DNA of 64,000 nucleotides, from positions 17,943 through 81,942 of IMG/VR virus record IMGVR_UViG_3300020577_002429; one strand, written 5' to 3'. Position numbers and translations under genes: made by a program. Shown here in pieces: positions 13,516 to 41,427 of this stretch; the first letter of the stretch is position 1; every line of letters starts with the position of its first letter. Origin of the DNA: a virus (lineage: Duplodnaviria; Caudoviricetes). The notes beneath the pieces are model-generated. The model was not told the DNA's origin. It worked only from the letters and a program-made list of their open reading frames with translations, and did not search any database.

Positions 13516-13591
13516 AGAAGGTAAGATTAAAAATAGTGATTTTGTTAGTGAGGAAGAAACGGAAGAAGGTTTTGCGAAAACCAATAGATAA
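13394..13591 (+). CDS. small helix-extension-helix (Rho-N/SAP-like) protein
   Basis: LAKMSNVALVSALKKVGYNIPSEIPRFQLLETI pattern; overlaps the tail of the upstream ORF. Confidence 0.4.
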   Translation: MEKLAKMSNVALVSALKKVGYNIPSEIPRFQLLETIRQLFREGKIKNSDFVSEEETEEGFAKTNR

Positions 13592-14030
13592 GAAAGCTTT
13601 CCTTATTCAAACATTACGTAGAGCATCGTATAGATGGCCGAGCCGTAATGCAGTATTAAAACGCGCTAGAGTAGCTAGAGGGCAGTATAAATGCGAGCTA
13701 TGCTCAGCTATAGTCGATAGACATAATATTAAGATGGATCACATACATGCTGTCGTAGATCCGGCGGTAGGTTGGGTATCACTGGACGTATTTGCTGATA
13801 GATTATTCTGCGATGAGTCCGGCTGGCAAGCCCTGTGCGTTCCATGTCACTCATTAAAAACTAAAGATGAGAATGAGATTCGTAAACAAACTCGCAAAGA
13901 AGCAAACGAAGCTAGAAAAGTAGCACGTAAGAAAGCTAAGAAGAAAGATCCAAAGACAAATAAACACACAGGTTCATCACTAGATGATTTCTTATCTGAG
14001 TGTGGCATAATTATTGAAGATAAAAAGTAA
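13536..14030 (+). CDS. HNH endonuclease
   Basis: YKCELC...MDHIHAVV...QALCVPCHSLKT; likely start TTG 13572. Confidence 0.85.
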   Translation: MILLVRKKRKKVLRKPIDKKAFLIQTLRRASYRWPSRNAVLKRARVARGQYKCELCSAIVDRHNIKMDHIHAVVDPAVGWVSLDVFADRLFCDESGWQALCVPCHSLKTKDENEIRKQTRKEANEARKVARKKAKKKDPKTNKHTGSSLDDFLSECGIIIEDKK

Positions 14031-14037
14031 TAACCAC

Positions 14038-14066
14038 TTGACATTATTGATATTGTATGGTATATC
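14038..14066 (+). promoter_or_regulatory. sigma70-type promoter (imperfect -10)
   Basis: TTGACA-17 nt-TATATC with TGn; lacks the conserved -7 T. Confidence 0.55.
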
Positions 14067-14072
14067 TATTGC

Positions 14073-14148
14073 ATACGGTATTTTCTCCTAAGTATCGTGT
14101 CCCTCCACAGGGCAGCTCAGTTTACCTCCACTGGGTTGCCCGATTTTT
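14073..14148 (+). ncRNA. candidate anti-Shine-Dalgarno small RNA or structured leader
   Basis: Two hairpins with loops UCUCCU and UUUACCUCCA, linker CCCUCCACA, then a T-run. Confidence 0.55.
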
Positions 14149-14158
14149 ATAAGGATAT

Positions 14159-14428
14159 ATGAAAGATTTTGAATTTCCATTCGCTACAGACAAAACAAAT
14201 GGTAAACCATCGGTAACGCTATTCTTTGCTTATGTTGCATTTTTAATCGCATTAGGTGTAACTATCTATCTTACAGTAAAAGATGTAGTAGCAGGATCTA
14301 TAGCGTCATTAATGTTATTTTTTGGATGTTTATTAATGTACCGCATGAGGGCTATTGATAAATTTAAAGTCAATCTTCAAGAACGATCTTTTGAAGCTGA
14401 AGATACTCCAGATGAGGAAAACAAATGA
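14159..14428 (+). CDS. two-TM holin-like membrane protein
   Basis: Two predicted TM helices, charged C-tail, 89 aa. Confidence 0.5.
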   Translation: MKDFEFPFATDKTNGKPSVTLFFAYVAFLIALGVTIYLTVKDVVAGSIASLMLFFGCLLMYRMRAIDKFKVNLQERSFEAEDTPDEENK

Positions 14429-14823
14429 GAAATTACATTATTACAGGACTTGTATGTTTAGTCATTGGAGTAGCCGCTGGTAGCAGTTTATTTCCTAAAG
14501 TAAAAGAGAAGACTGTTGAGACAGAAGTCGAGCGAGTAGTTAAAGACGTACAGACTGTAATCAAGGTAGTCACTAGACCGGATGGAACGAAGGAAGAAGT
14601 TACAACAATCGTCGATAAGTCTAAACAGAGTACAGACAAGACAAGCACTAAGATTATCGCTAAGAATGACTGGCACATTTCAGCATCAGGATCTCGCACT
14701 TTTACAGATAGTAGCATGACATATACTTTACAAGTAGAGCGTAGAATTATTGGTGATGTATTTTTAGGTGCATCAGTTAACAGTGATAAACAAGTTGGAT
14801 TAACCGTAGGATTGGAGTTTTAA
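14425..14823 (+). CDS. membrane-anchored protein with C-terminal beta-strands (spanin-like)
   Basis: N-terminal TM/signal; KEKTVETEV linker; C-term VGLTVGLEF resembling an outer-membrane beta-signal. Confidence 0.45.
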   Translation: MRNYIITGLVCLVIGVAAGSSLFPKVKEKTVETEVERVVKDVQTVIKVVTRPDGTKEEVTTIVDKSKQSTDKTSTKIIAKNDWHISASGSRTFTDSSMTYTLQVERRIIGDVFLGASVNSDKQVGLTVGLEF

Positions 14824-15249
14824 ATGAGAGCAGTAGAATTAAATGCTATATATGGTGATTTTTTAAATTCATATACAACACCCTTTAAGATTGACTTCTT
14901 GAATGATAAAGGTATAACCAAAGTCCCAGAAGATAATTTTGGCGCTTTTCAATTAAACCTACCAGCATCTTCTAATATAAAACTAGAAAAAACTAAGTCT
15001 GGTGGAGTACTTGTTAGATATTGCTTTGGGTTTGACTTCGCAAGAAAGACATTCTCTGATTATAAACAAGGAATTAGATTTCTATCAGTAGTTCAGAATG
15101 AAATGCTGTTAGCAATATCACCTTGGATTGATTGGTCAAAACCAACAAATAATCTATTTCAAAGACCAGGTATGCCAAATGCTTTCTTTTTAGAGCTAGA
15201 CAGTCATGCTGGAATAGAATTAAGAGCGTACTACGATGGATCAATTTAA
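14824..15249 (+). CDS. internally deleted paralogue of the major capsid protein (mini-MCP)
   Basis: YGD..N, GAFQLN...K....K......R and FQRPGMPNAFFLELDSHAGIELRAYYD match the MCP at 39100..40329. Confidence 0.85.
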   Translation: MRAVELNAIYGDFLNSYTTPFKIDFLNDKGITKVPEDNFGAFQLNLPASSNIKLEKTKSGGVLVRYCFGFDFARKTFSDYKQGIRFLSVVQNEMLLAISPWIDWSKPTNNLFQRPGMPNAFFLELDSHAGIELRAYYDGSI

Positions 15250-15703
15250 GGATTTATTAGACATAGCATCATCAGCTAGCAATTTAACTAATTGCGATTT
15301 TGATACATTCCTGAAGGAAAAGGGATTTGATGAATCTGATACTTCTAAGCGTATTCTTATTCAGGACTTATTTTTATTCTACACTCACTGGTATTACAAT
15401 AAGTATCAGAAGATACCGCACAGATCAAACTTCGCTAGAGGTAGTGAAATATTAAAATTATACAAATTAAGACAAAGATATCCAGGAACAAAGAAGCTAG
15501 CATGGGGGATAAGATGCTCGGCTTCATTTCGTATTGCGTATTTACTATTTAAAAAGGATACCCCCGAATGGCAACAAAAGCTAACAAAAATGTTAAACGC
15601 AAAAAAAGCACACCGAGCAAGAAAAATAAACCGCAAGGAGCAACGTCAGCTAGAAAAACTAATAAGCTCGCTGGCCTCAACCCAAGACTCTTCTCAAAAA
15701 TAA
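15236..15703 (+). CDS. hypothetical basic protein (possible winged-helix DNA binder)
   Basis: ORF track; function uncertain. Confidence 0.55.
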   Translation: MDQFKDLLDIASSASNLTNCDFDTFLKEKGFDESDTSKRILIQDLFLFYTHWYYNKYQKIPHRSNFARGSEILKLYKLRQRYPGTKKLAWGIRCSASFRIAYLLFKKDTPEWQQKLTKMLNAKKAHRARKINRKEQRQLEKLISSLASTQDSSQK

Positions 15704-16113
15704 AACAAGAGTTTCATGACTTAGACTACACTAAAGATCTTCCACCGAAGCTCCAGGAATACATGGCAAGCTTTATGGAAGAAAGTCTAGGTGCTAGATT
15801 CAATCATGATGGTAAGAAGCACATTAAGTCTAAAGCTAACAAGAAGAAGATATACACAGAGAATAATGCTAGACAAAGAGATACATACGCACTAACTAGA
15901 GCTACAGGACGTATGGTAGACATAGATCCTGAAATAGCAGTAAGTATTTGGCAAGAGCGTTATTTAGATCATGATTTTGAAGACAGCATGCTAAAGCAAG
16001 AAGAAAAACCTGAGCTATTAACTAAACGTGAATTTAAGAAACTCTTAGATAGCGGAGCTGAGATACCTTTTGAAATGTTAGCTTTTTATATGGACTATTA
16101 CGATCTAGAATAG
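15568..16113 (+). CDS. hypothetical protein with Lys-rich N-terminus
   Basis: ORF track; last plus-strand gene before convergence with the late block. Confidence 0.7.
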   Translation: MATKANKNVKRKKSTPSKKNKPQGATSARKTNKLAGLNPRLFSKIKQEFHDLDYTKDLPPKLQEYMASFMEESLGARFNHDGKKHIKSKANKKKIYTENNARQRDTYALTRATGRMVDIDPEIAVSIWQERYLDHDFEDSMLKQEEKPELLTKREFKKLLDSGAEIPFEMLAFYMDYYDLE

Positions 16114-16393: not shown

Positions 16394-18535
16394 TTATTTC
16401 TTATCTTCTTCTGAAACTGAACGAAACCAGCCCTGTTGATTTAACAAAAATATAGCACGATTCTTAACATCACCTTCAGGCATAGACATAACATCCTGTA
16501 CTTTTTTACCTAAATTAGAATTACCAAGCTTACTAGCAGCTTTAGCTAACTTACTGTTGGTAACAGCTCCAGCAGCTTGTCCAGCAGCAGCAGCTCCTCT
16601 ATAACCAATAGATTTTAAATTAGACTGAGAAATATCTCTAGCTAAATTATAGTTCTCACCAATACTCTTACCTTTAGTAATTAGGTCATTCACTTGTGGA
16701 TTATTTAAAACATTTTGAGATGCCTGTAATTTATTGGCGGCATCTCCAGTTTCATTCTTAGCAGCTTGTTTGAGCTGTTGAGTAAGGTACGTACCAGCAT
16801 CTTGAGTTTTTAAAACATTAGACGCTGATTCATCAAGACCGATACCAAGCTCTTTCAAACCGGCCATCATGTCTCTATATTTAGTATCTAACTCTGGAGC
16901 ACCTTTGATATTAGACTTAACGATATCATCAATCTTTGCAACTAGATCTGGTCTACCCATCTGCTCAGCGTAAGATTTCAAACTATTCAAGTTAACATCT
17001 TTAATAGTTGCTAAGTTAGTATTAGGTGCTGAGTTCTTAAGAATATCAACTTGATTAAGTAATCCAGAAAATGCCGAATTATTAGTTGCTTGCTTCTGTT
17101 CAATAAGATTAGCTATCTGCTTACTAGCATCAGCATTACCTTTTTGTAATCTTTGTATTTCAGCTTGTAACGGATCTGTTTGTGTTAATATGTCACGAGA
17201 AGATTTATCAACTACAGCTTCAGATTTACCAGCCTTATTTGATGTAAGTTTAGCTTCTGATACCTCGTACCCCAAATCTTTAAGTTCTTTTTCTTTATAG
17301 AACTTATCTTTAACTTTTTGACGGAGTTCATCCTCTATCTCCGCTTTTTCGGCAGCACTAGCAATCTTCTTTTGTTCTCTCAGAAGCATGATATCTTCTC
17401 TAATTTGGAATAACTCATTATCTAATTGCTTTTTCTGAGATAGATTTTCAGCAGCAGTATCAATAGATGAAATACCTTGCTCAGCTTTTTTGTAGCCAGT
17501 AGCAGAAGTCATCTCTTTCTTAGCTTTAGAAGCGTTAAGAATTGATACTTTAAGTTGTTTAATCTTATCATCACTGATGGACATGTCATTTCTTAGTTTA
17601 TTAATAGTAGAATCTACGGAACGAACATCAATCATTCCACCACGTACTTGCTGTTCAGCTAACTCATCAGCCAACTTATCAAGATCCGCTTGAAACTTCT
17701 CAGGAGCATCAATTTTTAAACGCTTAACTGCCTTTCCGTATTCAGTTTTAAAATCATTAGCCTGATTGGTTACCGCATTAACAATATCATCCGATGTTTT
17801 AAGTAATTCTTTATTAAATAATTCAGGGGCTTCTTTGCTAACTAAATCAGCACCTTTTTTAGATTTGTTAAATATTTTACCAGTCTTTTGACCAACTTCA
17901 CTAGCGGCAGCATAGTCAGCAATATTTCCAAGTCCCTTTAAACCACCACCAAGTATAGCACCGACACCAGCACCAACTCCAGCACCTTTTAAAACATCAG
18001 CAGCCTTAAGATTTTCTAATTCTTTTTCTTGTGCAGCAGCACTAATAGCACCGCCAGTAGCTCCCGCAGTAGCACCGGCCTTAGCCGCTTGCATAACACC
18101 TCGTACACCCTTAGCTCCGGCACCTAAAGTTTTAGCCGCAGCAAATCCTGGAGTGGCAAATCCGCCAACAAGTTCAGATAACAGTGCAGTTTTAGGATTA
18201 GCTTCAGATTGTTCGACACTTTTATCTCTAGATAAATCTCTAGTTTTATAATACTCAGCAGCAATTTCTTCAGGATCTAAAGTTGGTGCAGCAAACTCAA
18301 TATCCTGAATGTTGCCACCTGTATTTTTTAATCCAGCAACCCTAAGTCCTCCAGATACTAACCCTTGTAATCGGTCAGAAAGTCCCATAGTGACACCTTC
18401 TAGACCTTTTCCTACAGCAGTAGATAAGATACTAGGATCTTCTTTTTGAGGAGTATCAAAGTCAGAAAAGTCATAAGAACTTTCTTCTTTTGCTGGTGCA
18501 TCAAAATCTGAGAAGTCATACTGTTTATCAGACAT
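16394..18535 (-). CDS. internal virion/ejection protein
   Basis: 713 aa, helical, Gly/Ala-rich hydrophobic segments; YDFSDFD repeats at N-term; position after tail genes. Confidence 0.65.
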   Translation of the reverse strand: MSDKQYDFSDFDAPAKEESSYDFSDFDTPQKEDPSILSTAVGKGLEGVTMGLSDRLQGLVSGGLRVAGLKNTGGNIQDIEFAAPTLDPEEIAAEYYKTRDLSRDKSVEQSEANPKTALLSELVGGFATPGFAAAKTLGAGAKGVRGVMQAAKAGATAGATGGAISAAAQEKELENLKAADVLKGAGVGAGVGAILGGGLKGLGNIADYAAASEVGQKTGKIFNKSKKGADLVSKEAPELFNKELLKTSDDIVNAVTNQANDFKTEYGKAVKRLKIDAPEKFQADLDKLADELAEQQVRGGMIDVRSVDSTINKLRNDMSISDDKIKQLKVSILNASKAKKEMTSATGYKKAEQGISSIDTAAENLSQKKQLDNELFQIREDIMLLREQKKIASAAEKAEIEDELRQKVKDKFYKEKELKDLGYEVSEAKLTSNKAGKSEAVVDKSSRDILTQTDPLQAEIQRLQKGNADASKQIANLIEQKQATNNSAFSGLLNQVDILKNSAPNTNLATIKDVNLNSLKSYAEQMGRPDLVAKIDDIVKSNIKGAPELDTKYRDMMAGLKELGIGLDESASNVLKTQDAGTYLTQQLKQAAKNETGDAANKLQASQNVLNNPQVNDLITKGKSIGENYNLARDISQSNLKSIGYRGAAAAGQAAGAVTNSKLAKAASKLGNSNLGKKVQDVMSMPEGDVKNRAIFLLNQQGWFRSVSEEDKK

Positions 18536-19935
18536 TAGATCTTTCCATTCTCTTTTAATATTTTAATCGCCTCATTCTTATCTTTTATGTTATTCTTTTT
18601 CATAAAAGATTCAATCTTAGCATCGTCTACCGCTGGAGTTAGTTGTTGTTGCGGTTCAGACAACATAGGATCAATTAAATCCAAATCTGACTCAGCAAGA
18701 CCTCGCTGTAAGGCATTTTTCTTAATTCCAGATAAGTGTCTATTGTACTGTTTTTGTGCAATTGTTCTATTCATTTCGGCAAGCTTTAAAACCTGTTGGA
18801 TGAACTCTTTAGGGATCACACGAGGATTGTTTCCAAGCTTAGACATTTGATTTTCAAGTTGAGCTTTAAGAGAAACACCCTGTTGCGCTAAACTAATCTC
18901 ACCTTCACGTACTGCTGAGTTAGGATCGAATCCACGTACTGTTCTATATAATACGTCGATATCTTTAACTCCAGAGGGATCTTTTAATGCGGACATAGCT
19001 GATGTATACTGTTCTTCTGCCGTACTAATTTTCTTATAAGCATCAGACTTAATCAATCTATCATGTTGACGTTCCGCAAAGTCTAAATTTTTAGTATTAA
19101 TTTTAGTAGCTTTATCAGCAGACATAGCTTCACGCTGCATAGCTAAATTTTCTTTCTTAGCATCTTGAGCCATCTTAGCTGATACAATATTACCCAACAT
19201 TCCTGTTGTTTTCTGTAAATCTGCCATAGACATTTTATCACTAATAGCTACAGGTACGTTAGCAATCTTAGCATAGCTTGCCATATACTCTCTAAACGCC
19301 TTAGAAACATCACTATTAGGATCATTTTCTTTTTCTTTATCACCAAGTTCAAAAAGAGCTTTCTGCTCAGAGATAACTTGATTCTTACGTTTAAAACTTT
19401 GATCTTCTTGTTCCATCTCAGACTTACGGCGAGCTTGAAGGTCAGTAACATCTTTATTAGCTAAATCAACAAAGTCCTGTCCATACTTCTCATCAGCATT
19501 AACACCAGCAATAGATGCTCCGATTTTATTAGCAGCCCTAGCCATTAATATATTACGGATAGTATCATTAGCATTTGCTTGCTTATTCATCAGTTCATTA
19601 TCAGACTCAGGCTTTGGTAAGTTAGCCAGTAAGTCAGCTAAAGAAGCTTTCTTTTCAATAGGAGCTACTTCTTCTTGAGGAGCAGGAAGTTCTTGTTTAG
19701 GCATAGATGGAAGAGAAGGCTTGATAGTAGGTTTAGGAACGCTAGCTTGAATAACGTCAGGTTGTTCATTAGTAAAGTCCAACGTAGGCTTTCGTTCAGG
19801 ATATGCCATAGGACTTGGGTAAATAGACGGGTTTAAATTTGGTGCAACTTCATAAGCTGGAGAATTACCAACTTGATCAACAAGTTCATTTTGCTGAGGA
19901 ATACCTGCTAATAATTTTTTTAATAAATCATTCAT
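18535..19935 (-). CDS. internal virion/ejection protein
   Basis: 466 aa helical; DVLYRTVRGFDPNSAVREGEI motif typical of phage injection proteins. Confidence 0.6.
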   Translation of the reverse strand: MNDLLKKLLAGIPQQNELVDQVGNSPAYEVAPNLNPSIYPSPMAYPERKPTLDFTNEQPDVIQASVPKPTIKPSLPSMPKQELPAPQEEVAPIEKKASLADLLANLPKPESDNELMNKQANANDTIRNILMARAANKIGASIAGVNADEKYGQDFVDLANKDVTDLQARRKSEMEQEDQSFKRKNQVISEQKALFELGDKEKENDPNSDVSKAFREYMASYAKIANVPVAISDKMSMADLQKTTGMLGNIVSAKMAQDAKKENLAMQREAMSADKATKINTKNLDFAERQHDRLIKSDAYKKISTAEEQYTSAMSALKDPSGVKDIDVLYRTVRGFDPNSAVREGEISLAQQGVSLKAQLENQMSKLGNNPRVIPKEFIQQVLKLAEMNRTIAQKQYNRHLSGIKKNALQRGLAESDLDLIDPMLSEPQQQLTPAVDDAKIESFMKKNNIKDKNEAIKILKENGKI

Positions 19936-37490: not shown

Positions 37491-38303
37491 ATGAAGATTT
37501 GTAGTAAATGTAAGATAGAAAAAGAATTCAGCCATTTTAGTATTAGGGAGTATAAGAATGATATTCCTATCTATAGAAATCATTGTAAAGTTTGCCGAAC
37601 TAACCATACAATGACGAAAGTACGAGAGAATCCAGAGCAAACAAAGCAGAAAAAAAGAGAGAGTTACCATAAAAATAAAGAAGGTAGCTTAGCTAGAAAA
37701 AAGGCTAAGTATCGAAGTAATCCGGAACCGACAAAGATTGCAAATAAGAAATACTATGAATTGAACCGTGACAAAAAACTACAATACGCTAAAGAGTATA
37801 GACAATCTCGTAAAGAAGAGAATAAAGAATATCAGGCTAATTATAGAATTGAAAATAAAGAATTAAGACGAAAAGCTCACTATAATTGGGAGAAAAAAGA
37901 ATTAGAAAGTAATCCTGCATATAGAATTACAAAAAATTTACGAAATAGACTTAGAAATGCTCTTCATAGAATTGGTGCAGCAAAAGCTACTTCCGCTATA
38001 CATAAATTAATGAAAGATGATCTGTATTTAATGGAGCATTTTGAAAAGCAATGGCAACCGGGAATGACATGGGATAACTACGGAGACGAAGATAATTATT
38101 GGAATATAGACCATCACATCCCTTTTGCATATTTCGATGATGAACAATTAAAAGATCCATTAAATCAAAAAATACTAAATCATCCGATAAATCTTAGGCC
38201 ATTATGGGCGGCTGATAATTTACTCAAATCTGACACAATCCCCGACGACGTTGAGTTTGTGCTAAATCAAATTAAGAAAGCAATAGAAGATGAGTCGATT
38301 TAA
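37491..38303 (+). CDS. HNH-like endonuclease
   Basis: CSKC..CKVC; WNIDHHIPFA...NHPINLRPLWAADNLLKSD; paralogous to 36147..36866. Confidence 0.85.
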   Translation: MKICSKCKIEKEFSHFSIREYKNDIPIYRNHCKVCRTNHTMTKVRENPEQTKQKKRESYHKNKEGSLARKKAKYRSNPEPTKIANKKYYELNRDKKLQYAKEYRQSRKEENKEYQANYRIENKELRRKAHYNWEKKELESNPAYRITKNLRNRLRNALHRIGAAKATSAIHKLMKDDLYLMEHFEKQWQPGMTWDNYGDEDNYWNIDHHIPFAYFDDEQLKDPLNQKILNHPINLRPLWAADNLLKSDTIPDDVEFVLNQIKKAIEDESI

Positions 38304-39084
38304 TGTTGGTAATAAGGACATACAAGCATCAACGGCATGGCAATATCAACGACGATTAGAATCAGCGGCTACCGAAGCTAATCATCCATACTGGAATAAT
38401 TTAGATTTAACATTAAAAAATACAATCATAAAAGAAATATCAATAACAGAAGCTCGCCCTATTATTGAAAAATATGAATGGCTTGGAACTATAGCTGCTG
38501 TAAACAAGCATGCCTACGGGATTTATTTTAAAGATAATACAACAGGACTAAGTGTGTGTGGTGGGGTTGTAGTTTTTGGGAGTGAGTATTCCGAGAACTT
38601 AGGTGTTTGGGATAAGTATGGATTTTCTAATAAAATAATACTTCTCAATCGGGGAGTATGTCTGCATTGGACACCTAAAAATACAGCCTCTTATCTGATC
38701 ATGGCGGCTATAAAAATGCTACCAAAACAATATGAAATAGTCACCTGTACCGTCGATCATAATGCTGGAGAAGTCGGGACTATATACCAGTCCTGTAATT
38801 TTCATTATGTAGGATCTATGGGTAAGCCGGATAGACTTAGGTTTGCTGTAGAGATAAACGGTAAGATTTATGGGTCTAGAGCAATGAGAGTTAAAGTGGG
38901 TAGCCAAAAAAAAGCCGATATACTAGCTAAATATCCTGATGCGAAGTTTATTAAACAAAAATCAAAACACAGATATTTTTACTTTAATTGTGATAGAAGA
39001 AAGAAAAGGGAATATTTATCTAGAATTGAACACATGATAATTCCATATAAAAAAAGGGAGTCGAAAGACTCCCCTCAGAGATAA
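38290..39084 (+). CDS. mom: Mom-like GNAT-fold DNA adenine modification enzyme
   Basis: LLNRGVCLHWTPKNTASYLI...VDHNAGEVGTIYQSCNFHYVGS matches the Mu Mom pattern LELNRMW...PRNSESRAI...AD...GVVYQASNF.FIGS (recalled). Confidence 0.8.
   Translation: MSRFNVGNKDIQASTAWQYQRRLESAATEANHPYWNNLDLTLKNTIIKEISITEARPIIEKYEWLGTIAAVNKHAYGIYFKDNTTGLSVCGGVVVFGSEYSENLGVWDKYGFSNKIILLNRGVCLHWTPKNTASYLIMAAIKMLPKQYEIVTCTVDHNAGEVGTIYQSCNFHYVGSMGKPDRLRFAVEINGKIYGSRAMRVKVGSQKKADILAKYPDAKFIKQKSKHRYFYFNCDRRKKREYLSRIEHMIIPYKKRESKDSPQR
39049..39073 (-). terminator. intrinsic terminator after major capsid gene
   Basis: Minus strand GGGAGTC-TTTC-GACTCCC followed by TTTTTTT. Confidence 0.85.
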
Positions 39085-39099
39085 CTTTTAAAGTATCAA

Positions 39100-40329
39100 T
39101 TAAGAAACTTTTAAGTTAGTTACAAGCACCTGGCGGCCAATCTTATTGCATAGTAATGCCTGGTCAGTGTATGCACGAAGTTCAACACCTGCATGAGATT
39201 GCAGTTCCAGGAAGTACTTATCTGGTTGTCCAGGACGTTTGAAAGTAACGTCTGTAGAACCGATACGTCTCCAGTCATCTTTACAGATGATGAAAGCGTG
39301 ACCTTCTTTAACGTGGATGTATGGGATAATCTCAACCATACCGTTTTGAGAATGGAACTTGATTGAACGAGCGCCATTTTCAGCTTGGTTAGAAGAGTAA
39401 GAACTGTCATACATACGTAAAGCAGCTTGCTCAGTTAATAAATCATCCCAGTGACCTGGATTACAGAAAACTACTACGTCTTTATCTAAACCTTTTTCAA
39501 CACCTTTAGTGATAGCTTGTTGAATAACAGCGAAAGATAAAACGTCAGCTGTAGGTAAAGCGTACTGAGTACCTTCCCATAATTCGTATTGAGCAGCATC
39601 AATACCGAACATTACGCCTGTGTTTTCCATGATCTTTTTCATACCGATCATTTGTTTACCAAATGCGCCAGCAGGATATAACTTATGTCCAGCAGCGGCA
39701 CCAACGATACCAACACCTTGTAAAGTTACAATTTTAGTTGATAAATCAACGCGTTGTACTTGAGCTGTTCCAACTAAAGTAACACCATTGTACAAATCAA
39801 CTTTCATACCACGAGAACCAGCCCAGATACCTGGAGCAAATTCAGCATCAGTAATTTTGAAAGAAGTAGCTGTAGGAGCTGGAGAAGAGTCTAAAACTCC
39901 GATACCATCTTGTCCGTACATTAATTCAACTTCTAATTTTTTGTATAATGAATCCATCATGTTTTGGATTACATACTTAGTTGTTTCTTGGAAAGCTTGC
40001 TCACTACCTTGAGAACGGAAAATTGATTCGTATGACATTGCAGAACGCAATACGATTTGGTTTCCTTTGATAGTTGCTTGCTTAACTGCACCAGCTACTG
40101 CATCGTTCAATTGGAACGCACCAGCATCAGATGATTCGTAAGTTACGCCATGCTCTAATCCTAAAATTACAGCTACGTTATATGATTCACCTGTTTTTGC
40201 TTTTGGCAAGAAAGGGATCATTTCCGCTACCTTTTTACCAACTGGGATGATGTTTTCTAAATCACCATAAACTTTTTTAAAGAGACCGTTCGCAGTTGTA
40301 ATGTCAACTGCACCTGGAAAATCTGCCAT
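39100..40329 (-). CDS. major capsid protein (HK97 fold)
   Basis: 409 aa directly downstream of scaffold, own promoter and terminator; DLLYG-like ELMYGQDG, VFCNPGHWDDL. Confidence 0.85.
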   Translation of the reverse strand: MADFPGAVDITTANGLFKKVYGDLENIIPVGKKVAEMIPFLPKAKTGESYNVAVILGLEHGVTYESSDAGAFQLNDAVAGAVKQATIKGNQIVLRSAMSYESIFRSQGSEQAFQETTKYVIQNMMDSLYKKLEVELMYGQDGIGVLDSSPAPTATSFKITDAEFAPGIWAGSRGMKVDLYNGVTLVGTAQVQRVDLSTKIVTLQGVGIVGAAAGHKLYPAGAFGKQMIGMKKIMENTGVMFGIDAAQYELWEGTQYALPTADVLSFAVIQQAITKGVEKGLDKDVVVFCNPGHWDDLLTEQAALRMYDSSYSSNQAENGARSIKFHSQNGMVEIIPYIHVKEGHAFIICKDDWRRIGSTDVTFKRPGQPDKYFLELQSHAGVELRAYTDQALLCNKIGRQVLVTNLKVS

Positions 40330-40503: not shown

Positions 40504-41427
40504 TTACCAACCACCCATGTCTTCAATTCTAATCTTCTTAGGTGCTGTTGGAGTCGCTTCTGTAGTCTTAGTTGTAGAAGGGGTAGATGAAGTAGGAGTT
40601 TTCTTAACTTTAGCTACCGAGTGTTTGCGGTATTCATTAAGAACATCTTTACCTAATAACTTTTCAAGCTTAGCTGGTTCTCTATGCTTACCAATAAGAC
40701 TACCAAAATCACTCTTCATTCTACCTTCAACGTAAGGCATAATGTCTTCTACAGTAACATCTTCCCATCCAGCTTCAATAGCAGAAGCCATAGCATCAGC
40801 TACTCTACGGATAAAGAATGGTTCAGCAGGAAGATCACTCTTCTCTAAAGCTTGAATCATGCTGTTTTCAATCTCAGTCTGATTACGACGAGTTGCTTCT
40901 TCTAATTGCTGAGCACGACGAGCGTCTTCTTCTTTTTTCTTATTATCTTCATATTCTTTTAACTTACGTTCATACTCTTCAAGCTTCTTTTGCTCAGGAG
41001 ACTTCTGTTGTTCTTCTAAGTCCTGTAAAAGAACTTGTTCAGCTAATTTTCGGATATCTAAGCCTAATGCCGGATTACGAAGTACCGACAAGGGGTCATT
41101 TTGTAACATCTCAACTAGCTGCTCAGCTTGCTTTTTATAACTAGAAGCTTCTTGAAACTTCTCATCAGCAGCCATAGCTTTCTGTAAGTATTTCTTAACT
41201 TCTTCATCATTATCCATATCAAGGTCAATCTTCTTAGATTTACCATTGACTTTAAGTTCGTATGATTTTAAAGCTTTTTTTATTTCTTCTTGCTTTTTAG
41301 CTTCTTGTGCTGGCGTTTCTTGAGTTTCTTCACCAGAGGCTTCTAACTCTTGACCTTCGATTGCTTCGACTTCGGGAGCCGTTTCTACTGCTTCTGGCGC
41401 AGGAGCGCCTGTGTTTTCTTCTGACAT
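40504..41427 (-). CDS. capsid scaffolding protein
   Basis: Acidic helical; YELKVNGKSKKIDL...YLQKAMAADEKFQEAS motif; upstream of MCP. Confidence 0.8.
   Translation of the reverse strand: MSEENTGAPAPEAVETAPEVEAIEGQELEASGEETQETPAQEAKKQEEIKKALKSYELKVNGKSKKIDLDMDNDEEVKKYLQKAMAADEKFQEASSYKKQAEQLVEMLQNDPLSVLRNPALGLDIRKLAEQVLLQDLEEQQKSPEQKKLEEYERKLKEYEDNKKKEEDARRAQQLEEATRRNQTEIENSMIQALEKSDLPAEPFFIRRVADAMASAIEAGWEDVTVEDIMPYVEGRMKSDFGSLIGKHREPAKLEKLLGKDVLNEYRKHSVAKVKKTPTSSTPSTTKTTEATPTAPKKIRIEDMGGW

Follow-up and report, generated by a model that had tools for sequence, protein, structure and literature searches.

A small, optional phage gene homologous to two separated parts of the major capsid protein

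Why would a tailed phage carry, beside its full-length major capsid protein (MCP), a second and much shorter protein that resembles it? The question arises in the window analysed here, a 64,000-nt stretch covering bases 17943-81942 of an 81.9-kb IMG/VR phage record that is 98% complete. A preliminary description had picked out three collinear blocks shared by the two proteins and had taken the short one, which we call mini-MCP, for an internally deleted paralogue of the phage's own MCP. Both reading frames are intact (Table 1), and the small gene lies on the strand opposite to MCP and outside the late operon, as described, in an operon at the end of the early/replication strand block and 24 kb from the head module. 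It starts 1 base past the stop codon of the upstream gene, has a GGAG 6 nt ahead of its ATG, and shares its final 14 nt with the start of the next gene.

Table 1. Coordinates of the mini-MCP operon, the related parts of MCP and the gene slot upstream of the operon (window positions unless a contig is named).
Feature	Position	Strand	Remarks
Promoter-like site, TTGACA-17-TATATC	14037-14065	+	
Strong intrinsic terminator	14110-14141	+	12-bp stem and T run; ends 17 nt before p89
p89	14159..14428	+	First gene of the operon; 89-aa membrane protein
p132	14425..14823	+	132 aa; N-terminal membrane anchor; directly upstream of mini-MCP
mini-MCP gene	14824..15249	+	Intact ORF; 141 aa, 16 kDa, pI 6.6
mini-MCP block 1, IYGDFLN	14848..14868	+	Predicted N-terminal helix; counterpart is MCP N-arm helix motif VYGDLEN
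mini-MCP N block, aa 17-78	14872..15057	+	Homologous to MCP aa 50-108 (E = 1.1e-12)
mini-MCP predicted spine helix, aa 80-101	15061..15126	+	Contains VVQNEML; collinear with start of MCP spine helix
mini-MCP C block, aa 103-141	15130..15246	+	Homologous to MCP aa 352-392
p155	15236..15703	+	Conserved gene downstream of mini-MCP; homologue in G001 (E = 1e-35)
MCP	39100..40329	-	HK97 fold, 409 aa; full-length relative; intact ORF; phrog_14242; PDB matches
MCP aa 50-108	40006..40182	-	Matches mini-MCP N block (family-profile comparison)
MCP aa ~132-351	39277..39936	-	No counterpart in mini-MCP; rest of spine helix, A-domain, insertions
MCP aa 352-392	39154..39276	-	Matches mini-MCP C block (BLASTP, profile)
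Slot content, window	13536-14030		HNH endonuclease
Slot content, L006	L006:8944-9609		Endonuclease VII protein
Slot content, L008-L010	L008:5160-6218		352-aa treble-clef and CapR-type zinc-finger protein
Slot content, L135	L135:14083-14550		Unrelated 155-aa gene

Homology to the major capsid protein and predicted fold

The longer protein, a member of a family of ~1,900 proteins, has a weak match to 'major head protein' in the PHROGs search. Its AF2 model (pLDDT 75.8) has 316 PDB matches at E<=0.001; all of those listed are HK97-fold capsids, and the best is the SU10 capsid (6.4e-11). By BLASTP, mini-MCP residues 103-141 match residues 352-392 of this protein with 22 of 41 positions identical (E = 3e-13), a stretch that includes the 27-residue core for which 19 identities had been counted, a count that is exact; residues 28-71 match MCP residues 59-101 at E = 0.003. 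Comparison of the family alignments, 53 mini-MCPs (A2) against 28 MCPs (A3), gives E = 1.7e-14 for the C block against the MCP family. With the C block cut away, the N part alone still aligns, mini-MCP 17-78 with MCP 50-108, at E = 1.1e-12 and a probability of 97.8%. The similarity goes beyond chance short motifs, as two blocks are significant in profile comparison.

The remaining pieces of the original alignment hold up in part. IYGDFLN and VYGDLEN are present, collinear and placed in matching predicted N-arm helices (mini-MCP 3-15, MCP 10-21), and the same is true of SVVQNEM and YVIQNMM in matching predicted spine helices (mini-MCP 80-101, MCP 110-138), but the short motifs IYGDFLN and VVQNEM are not significant individually in the family profiles (E = 0.2 and 0.11). 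On these alignments, mini-MCP is truly homologous to two separated parts of MCP, with their order kept. The N block holds the E-loop region, the first P-domain strand and a short helix; MCP residues 110-131 (VIQNMM) are the counterpart of the predicted spine helix that follows; and the C block corresponds to the P-domain hairpin with its RPG loop and the ELRAY strand. The reported loss of the central MCP is confirmed, although its size is ~220 residues (~132-351) rather than ~230, and an N-arm stretch and the last 17 residues are missing as well.

The codons of the shared residues have diverged, as had been pointed out for the C-terminal core: there, the codon is shared for only 4 of the 19 identical residues, and 8 of 27 third positions agree. 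Codon use differs too, with AGA and TTA in mini-MCP and CGT and CTG in MCP, and GC3 is 0.20 versus 0.28. Such divergence with the amino acids kept argues that the similarity has been held by selection at the protein level. Saturated synonymous sites and differing codons rule out recent gene conversion and a recent deletion copy. Ten positions are near-invariant in the mini-MCP family; eight of these align to invariant MCP residues (T63, A71, F72, L74, R95, P366, E383 and R385), a ninth to the near-invariant F373 and the tenth to the MCP consensus residue N123.

The AF2 model of mini-MCP, built on a 53-sequence alignment, is confident (pLDDT 92.4, pTM 0.85). Its elements run from a helix (3-15) through a long extended segment to a strand (62-69), a short helix (70-76), a 22-residue helix (80-101) and a terminal hairpin (122-137). 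The MCP model has the same order, with a helix (10-21), the E-loop region, strands (82-99), a helix (100-105), the spine helix (110-138) and terminal strands (353-364 and 381-394); between the spine helix and these strands it carries the A-domain and insertions. In mini-MCP, the spine helix passes directly into the terminal hairpin, and the complete fold with an A-domain is absent. The protein is thus an HK97 N-arm, E-loop, spine helix and last P-domain hairpin without the axial (A) domain, the domain that closes pentamers and hexamers.

Structure searches, which the preliminary description had proposed as a check, agree with this picture in part. Nearly all top structural neighbours of the model are HK97-fold capsid proteins or encapsulins, but the matches are weak (Z 5.2-3.3; Kp7 at Z 5.2, phi29 MCP at Z 4.9 over 100 residues at 3.9 A), and Foldseek against the PDB and BFVD returned no match at E<=0.001, with capsid proteins weakly enriched in the lists. 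Two small cellular proteins, 2gtc and 1y2i, also resemble the stripped fold weakly (Z 3.7-3.9). It is the sequence-profile evidence that is decisive for homology; the fold search merely agrees. The model makes mini-MCP a test case for the HK97 fold, in which N-arm, E-loop, spine helix and P-domain hairpin apparently fold stably as a 16-kDa unit with the A-domain absent.

Selection, origin and distribution

Eight close orthologues of mini-MCP (137-144 aa, 60-97% identity) were found, and a profile search of 1.84 billion representatives adds ~45 further clusters of 127-160-aa proteins that align end to end; in the same search, full-length MCPs, including P0171 and P0173, match solely in two stretches. 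Over the whole family, lengths range from 127 to 178 aa. Against the 97%-identical orthologue, dN/dS is 0.035 (29 nucleotide changes, 4 amino-acid changes), and against the 74%-identical orthologues it is 0.16-0.21. Orthologues therefore exist, and ratios far below 1 indicate that the gene is under purifying selection. Mini-MCP is at the same time the fastest-changing gene of its operon: against L004, its dN is 0.167 and that of the operon neighbours 0.005-0.039, 4-30 times lower, and in this comparison the tail-fibre-like genes on the other strand alone vary as much. Profiles, dN/dS and model bear out the earlier view of a real, selected protein composed of HK97 E-loop, spine-helix and P-domain parts.

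The proposed origin did not survive. In a tree of the shared parts of 59 mini-MCPs and 42 MCPs, the latter including those of a ~34-kb phage clade, one branch (SH-aLRT 98) splits all mini-MCPs from all MCPs, and the mini-MCP branches are several-fold longer. With this single branch and saturated synonymous sites, mini-MCP is not an internally deleted paralogue of the phage's own MCP. Repeated independent births from local MCP genes were rejected on the same branch, and a single old origin of the family would be the simplest reading of the tree.

The family is carried within a clade of ~80-88-kb phages whose capsid, portal and adaptor proteins are SU10-like, by some of its members and in every case among early or accessory genes; it was found only in phages whose MCP is of the same lineage. 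Pfam, PHROGs and PADLOC hold no family that matches mini-MCP, and a PDB sequence search gave no match. Neither DNA nor protein comparison with INPHARED phages found it; there, the sole match of MCP is a Silvanigrella phage at 29%. A scan of IMG/VR with the close-family alignment and two metagenome scans also gave no match. With the family profile, a separate mini-MCP gene of 136-178 aa was found in 7 of the 38 IMG/VR relatives searched (G001, G003, G005, G010, G013, G017 and G019), and the rest had none at E<=0.01, among them the 100%-complete ~80-kb genomes G008 and G012 and the ~34-kb clade. In G001, MCP is 85% identical and mini-MCP 32%; in the distant genomes, mini-MCP is located among small early genes.

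Close relatives are syntenic, with p89, p132, mini-MCP and p155/p181 followed by the convergent late strand, and on backbones 83-87% identical in DNA the mini-MCP locus has three states. First, the window allele recurs as a 100% identical copy in another sample (L131). Second, in L014, mini-MCP is 32% identical in a setting where p132 is 92%, p181 97% and p90 100% identical in amino acids and the flanks are 87% identical in nucleotides; DNA similarity is lost exactly at the start of mini-MCP and returns ~40 nt before its stop. Third, a 75-kb sister contig (L132, L135-L137) lacks window bases 14824-15235, and in it the stop of p132 overlaps the ATG of p155 (TAATG). Mini-profile search of 31 of the 75 kb of this contig found no other match. 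The MCP of this sister phage is 99.5% identical to that of the window over 392 aa, so mini-MCP is dispensable for building this capsid. As these comparisons indicate, mini-MCP is an optional accessory gene exchanged as a unit, which is neither part of the late module nor present in every genome.

The operon and other variable genes

Upstream of p89, a promoter-like site is visible and is followed by a strong intrinsic terminator, so expression of mini-MCP may depend on read-through. The stretch 14037-14141, which matched no family in an Rfam search, is a possible leader gating the operon, as an attenuator or a small RNA. In the neighbouring p132, an N-terminal membrane anchor or signal is followed by a charged middle and ~4 predicted C-terminal beta strands; the protein ends in ...GLTVGLEF (...GIDW in the sister phage), like an outer-membrane beta-signal, and may be a small outer-membrane protein. 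Obligate pairing of mini-MCP with p132 was considered and rejected: the gene order is reversed in G001, where mini-MCP precedes the p132 homologue, and p132 is absent near distant mini-MCPs.

Past mini-MCP, gene callers differ, giving either one protein of 181 aa or two of 155 and 116 aa. The p155 frame overlaps the 181-aa frame (15568-16113) by 136 nt in another frame, and within the overlap an 84-nt stretch (15575-15658) is identical in four genomes that are otherwise ~87% identical, which suggests dual coding or another constraint.

The slot upstream of p89-p132 holds differing homing endonucleases in relatives (Table 1), and by its gene content the region is a mobile-gene (homing-endonuclease) hot spot. 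In L014, the swapped segment coincides almost exactly with the mini-MCP gene and does not reach out from the endonuclease slot. We considered a link to the CapRel sensor through the 'CapR' domain of the L008-L010 protein and rejected it, because this domain (PF21817) is a zinc-finger DNA-binding domain unrelated to CapRel. It is common to the PLE CapR repressor and to ICP1 proteins predicted as homing endonucleases, and the L008-L010 protein is probably one more homing endonuclease.

The MCP gene itself is interrupted in some relatives. In the mini-less sister phage, an insert of ~910 nt (L137:3128-4038, logan:SRR28201391_26127) interrupts it after codon 17/18; this insert carries a LAGLIDADG_2 homing-endonuclease ORF (L137 3311-3991) and is probably a group I intron. 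The 99.5%-identical window gene has no insert at the counterpart site, ~40276-40279. The idea that mini-MCP copies the site in the MCP gene at which the intron homes was dropped, as no DNA similarity is seen there by eye. Interruptions near residues 54-62 occur in further MCP genes of the family (L023, L020, L022 and L043). The insert in G005 (L023:460-667) is ~205 nt long, contains stops and no ORF, looks structured and has no Rfam match; in G010, G013 and G017, the MCP match begins at residue 54-62, and the 300 nt upstream do not contain the N-terminal part.

Two further regions vary among the close relatives. At the end of the late strand (16394-19935, -), proteins of 713 and 466 aa are 41-85% identical beside neighbours of 97-100%, the pattern that would be expected of host-range (fibre-like) proteins. 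Between MCP and the next late genes, the sister phage (L137:5409-7347) has Mom-like, M15 peptidase-like and endonuclease VII genes, and two + strand ORFs, of 270 and 264 aa, occupy the window counterpart (37491-39084), which makes this another variable island in the structural region.

Possible function and comparison with known systems

The data point away from a required role in assembly and toward an optional mimic. We favour, with a probability of about 45%, the reading that mini-MCP is a soluble mimic of the MCP rim for use in conflict rather than a building block. Such a protein would keep only those residues that MCP itself cannot change and would occupy or titrate a factor that recognises the MCP periphery; candidate targets would be a capsid-triggered host immune sensor, a satellite capsid-hijacking protein or a rival phage. 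Different hosts would favour different alleles or none. Without an A-domain, contacts through the E-loop, P-loop or N-arm would be possible, but capsomer closure would not. That sister phages sharing one MCP differ in their mini-MCP allele or lack the gene favours a role in conflict with an opponent that varies between hosts. Capsid proteins are common triggers of bacterial defence systems (PMC13728456), and mini-MCP is small, accessory, patchy in distribution, fast-diverging and located in a variable early region, as counter-defence genes are. A narrower version of the mimic is possible though doubtful: a dedicated capsid-rim decoy, made early or as an accessory protein, that would blind or saturate MCP-recognising factors and whose alleles would be exchanged as cassettes according to host. 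A poison aimed at sister phages is unlikely, since it would also hit the phage's own MCP, from which theirs barely differ.

Several points count against the mimic. A sensor bound by mini-MCP could be activated just as readily as blocked, and the near-invariant residues shared with MCP may serve folding alone, without forming a binding surface. Allele swap and loss also occur in harmless accessory genes in homing-endonuclease mosaic regions, and PADLOC gave no match of mini-MCP to a defence or anti-defence family.

The main rival, which we consider somewhat unlikely, is that mini-MCP modulates head assembly of its own phage as an optional factor, a pseudo-subunit whose N-arm, E-loop and P-loop surfaces would bind MCP or the scaffold encoded at 40504..41427. 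It might restrain MCP ahead of nucleation, or cap the edges of the lattice, and so aid the fidelity of a probably prolate head. In solved HK97-fold capsids, N-arm, E-loop and P-domain parts make scaffold and inter-capsomer contacts, and it is these contact parts, along with MCP-invariant residues, that mini-MCP retains. The nearest solved relative of MCP is from the prolate SU10 capsid, in which hexamers need several conformations (PMC9509320). That same head is made of MCP only, and no minor capsid protein was observed in it (PMC9509320); a modulator is hard to square with a sister phage that has a 99.5%-identical MCP and no mini-MCP, with 32%-identical alleles on near-identical backbones, with evolution far faster than that of MCP and with a place outside the late operon.

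Less probable again is reuse of an old capsid-derived fold for a job unrelated to capsids, such as binding a host protein or nucleic acid. The ancient split between mini-MCP and MCP would fit this, as would the weak resemblance to 2gtc and 1y2i, but 9 of the 10 unchanging mini-MCP positions align to invariant or near-invariant MCP residues, including RPG residues in a surface loop, and the family was found only in phages with an MCP of the same lineage.

T4 Soc and Hoc are optional proteins encoded away from the head genes, and mini-MCP could be a non-essential decoration or cement protein of this type on the finished capsid. Its optional, patchy distribution is compatible with such a role, and an origin from the MCP rim could suit sites between capsomers. 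We nevertheless regard this as improbable, because the gene belongs to an early/accessory operon on the other strand with codon use unlike that of MCP, and because it does not co-vary with MCP, being absent or present as a very different, 32%-identical allele beside near-identical MCPs and backbones; no such protein is seen in SU10 heads (PMC9509320). Finally, a decaying partial duplicate of MCP or a chance ORF without function, for which only the small size and the lack of database annotation speak, is refuted by the selection and conservation seen in the alignments (dN/dS of 0.035-0.21, full-length orthologues and ~45 clusters of the same length), and against it stand also the confident predicted fold, the coupling to neighbouring genes and the gene's own ribosome-binding site.

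Among known systems, the T4 vertex protein gp24 (PDB 1yue) is, like mini-MCP, a second gene descended from the phage's HK97-fold MCP, in its case gp23, and 1yue is among the structural neighbours of the mini-MCP model (Z 3.6). Unlike mini-MCP, gp24 has the whole fold including the A-domain, forms pentamers of the shell and is a late structural gene; mini-MCP, having no A-domain, is not a full-fold vertex paralogue. SaPIbov5 Ccm (PDB 7rwz), P4 Sid, SaPI CpmB and PLE TcaP engage the MCP of a helper phage and alter its assembly. Ccm resembles mini-MCP in being a relative of HK97-fold MCPs, and 7rwz and 7jw1 are among the weak structural neighbours of mini-MCP, but the fold of Ccm is complete and shell-forming. 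Sid, CpmB and TcaP are not derived from MCP, and all four proteins are encoded by satellites. Mini-MCP is not satellite-encoded: the 81.9-kb phage genome in which it lies is 98% complete and includes a full head and tail module of its own.

In a full-text literature search, we found no description of a truncated or A-domain-less MCP paralogue, an MCP decoy or a dominant-negative phage capsid protein; the mini-MCP family is widespread, and we found no published description of it. Capsid-triggered systems, including CapRel-SJ46, staphylococcal Thoeris, some CBASS and STAND NTPases, would give a selective reason for an MCP look-alike, and the optional, allele-swapping pattern of mini-MCP resembles that of counter-defence genes. 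Escape from capsid-triggered defences has been reported as point mutations in MCP (PMC13728456). If mini-MCP is a mimic, a conserved, cassette-like copy of the capsid rim would be a different answer to capsid sensing than mutation; alternatively, it would be a new kind of assembly regulator. With three natural states, allele A, allele B and none, beside essentially the same MCP, the question is directly testable.
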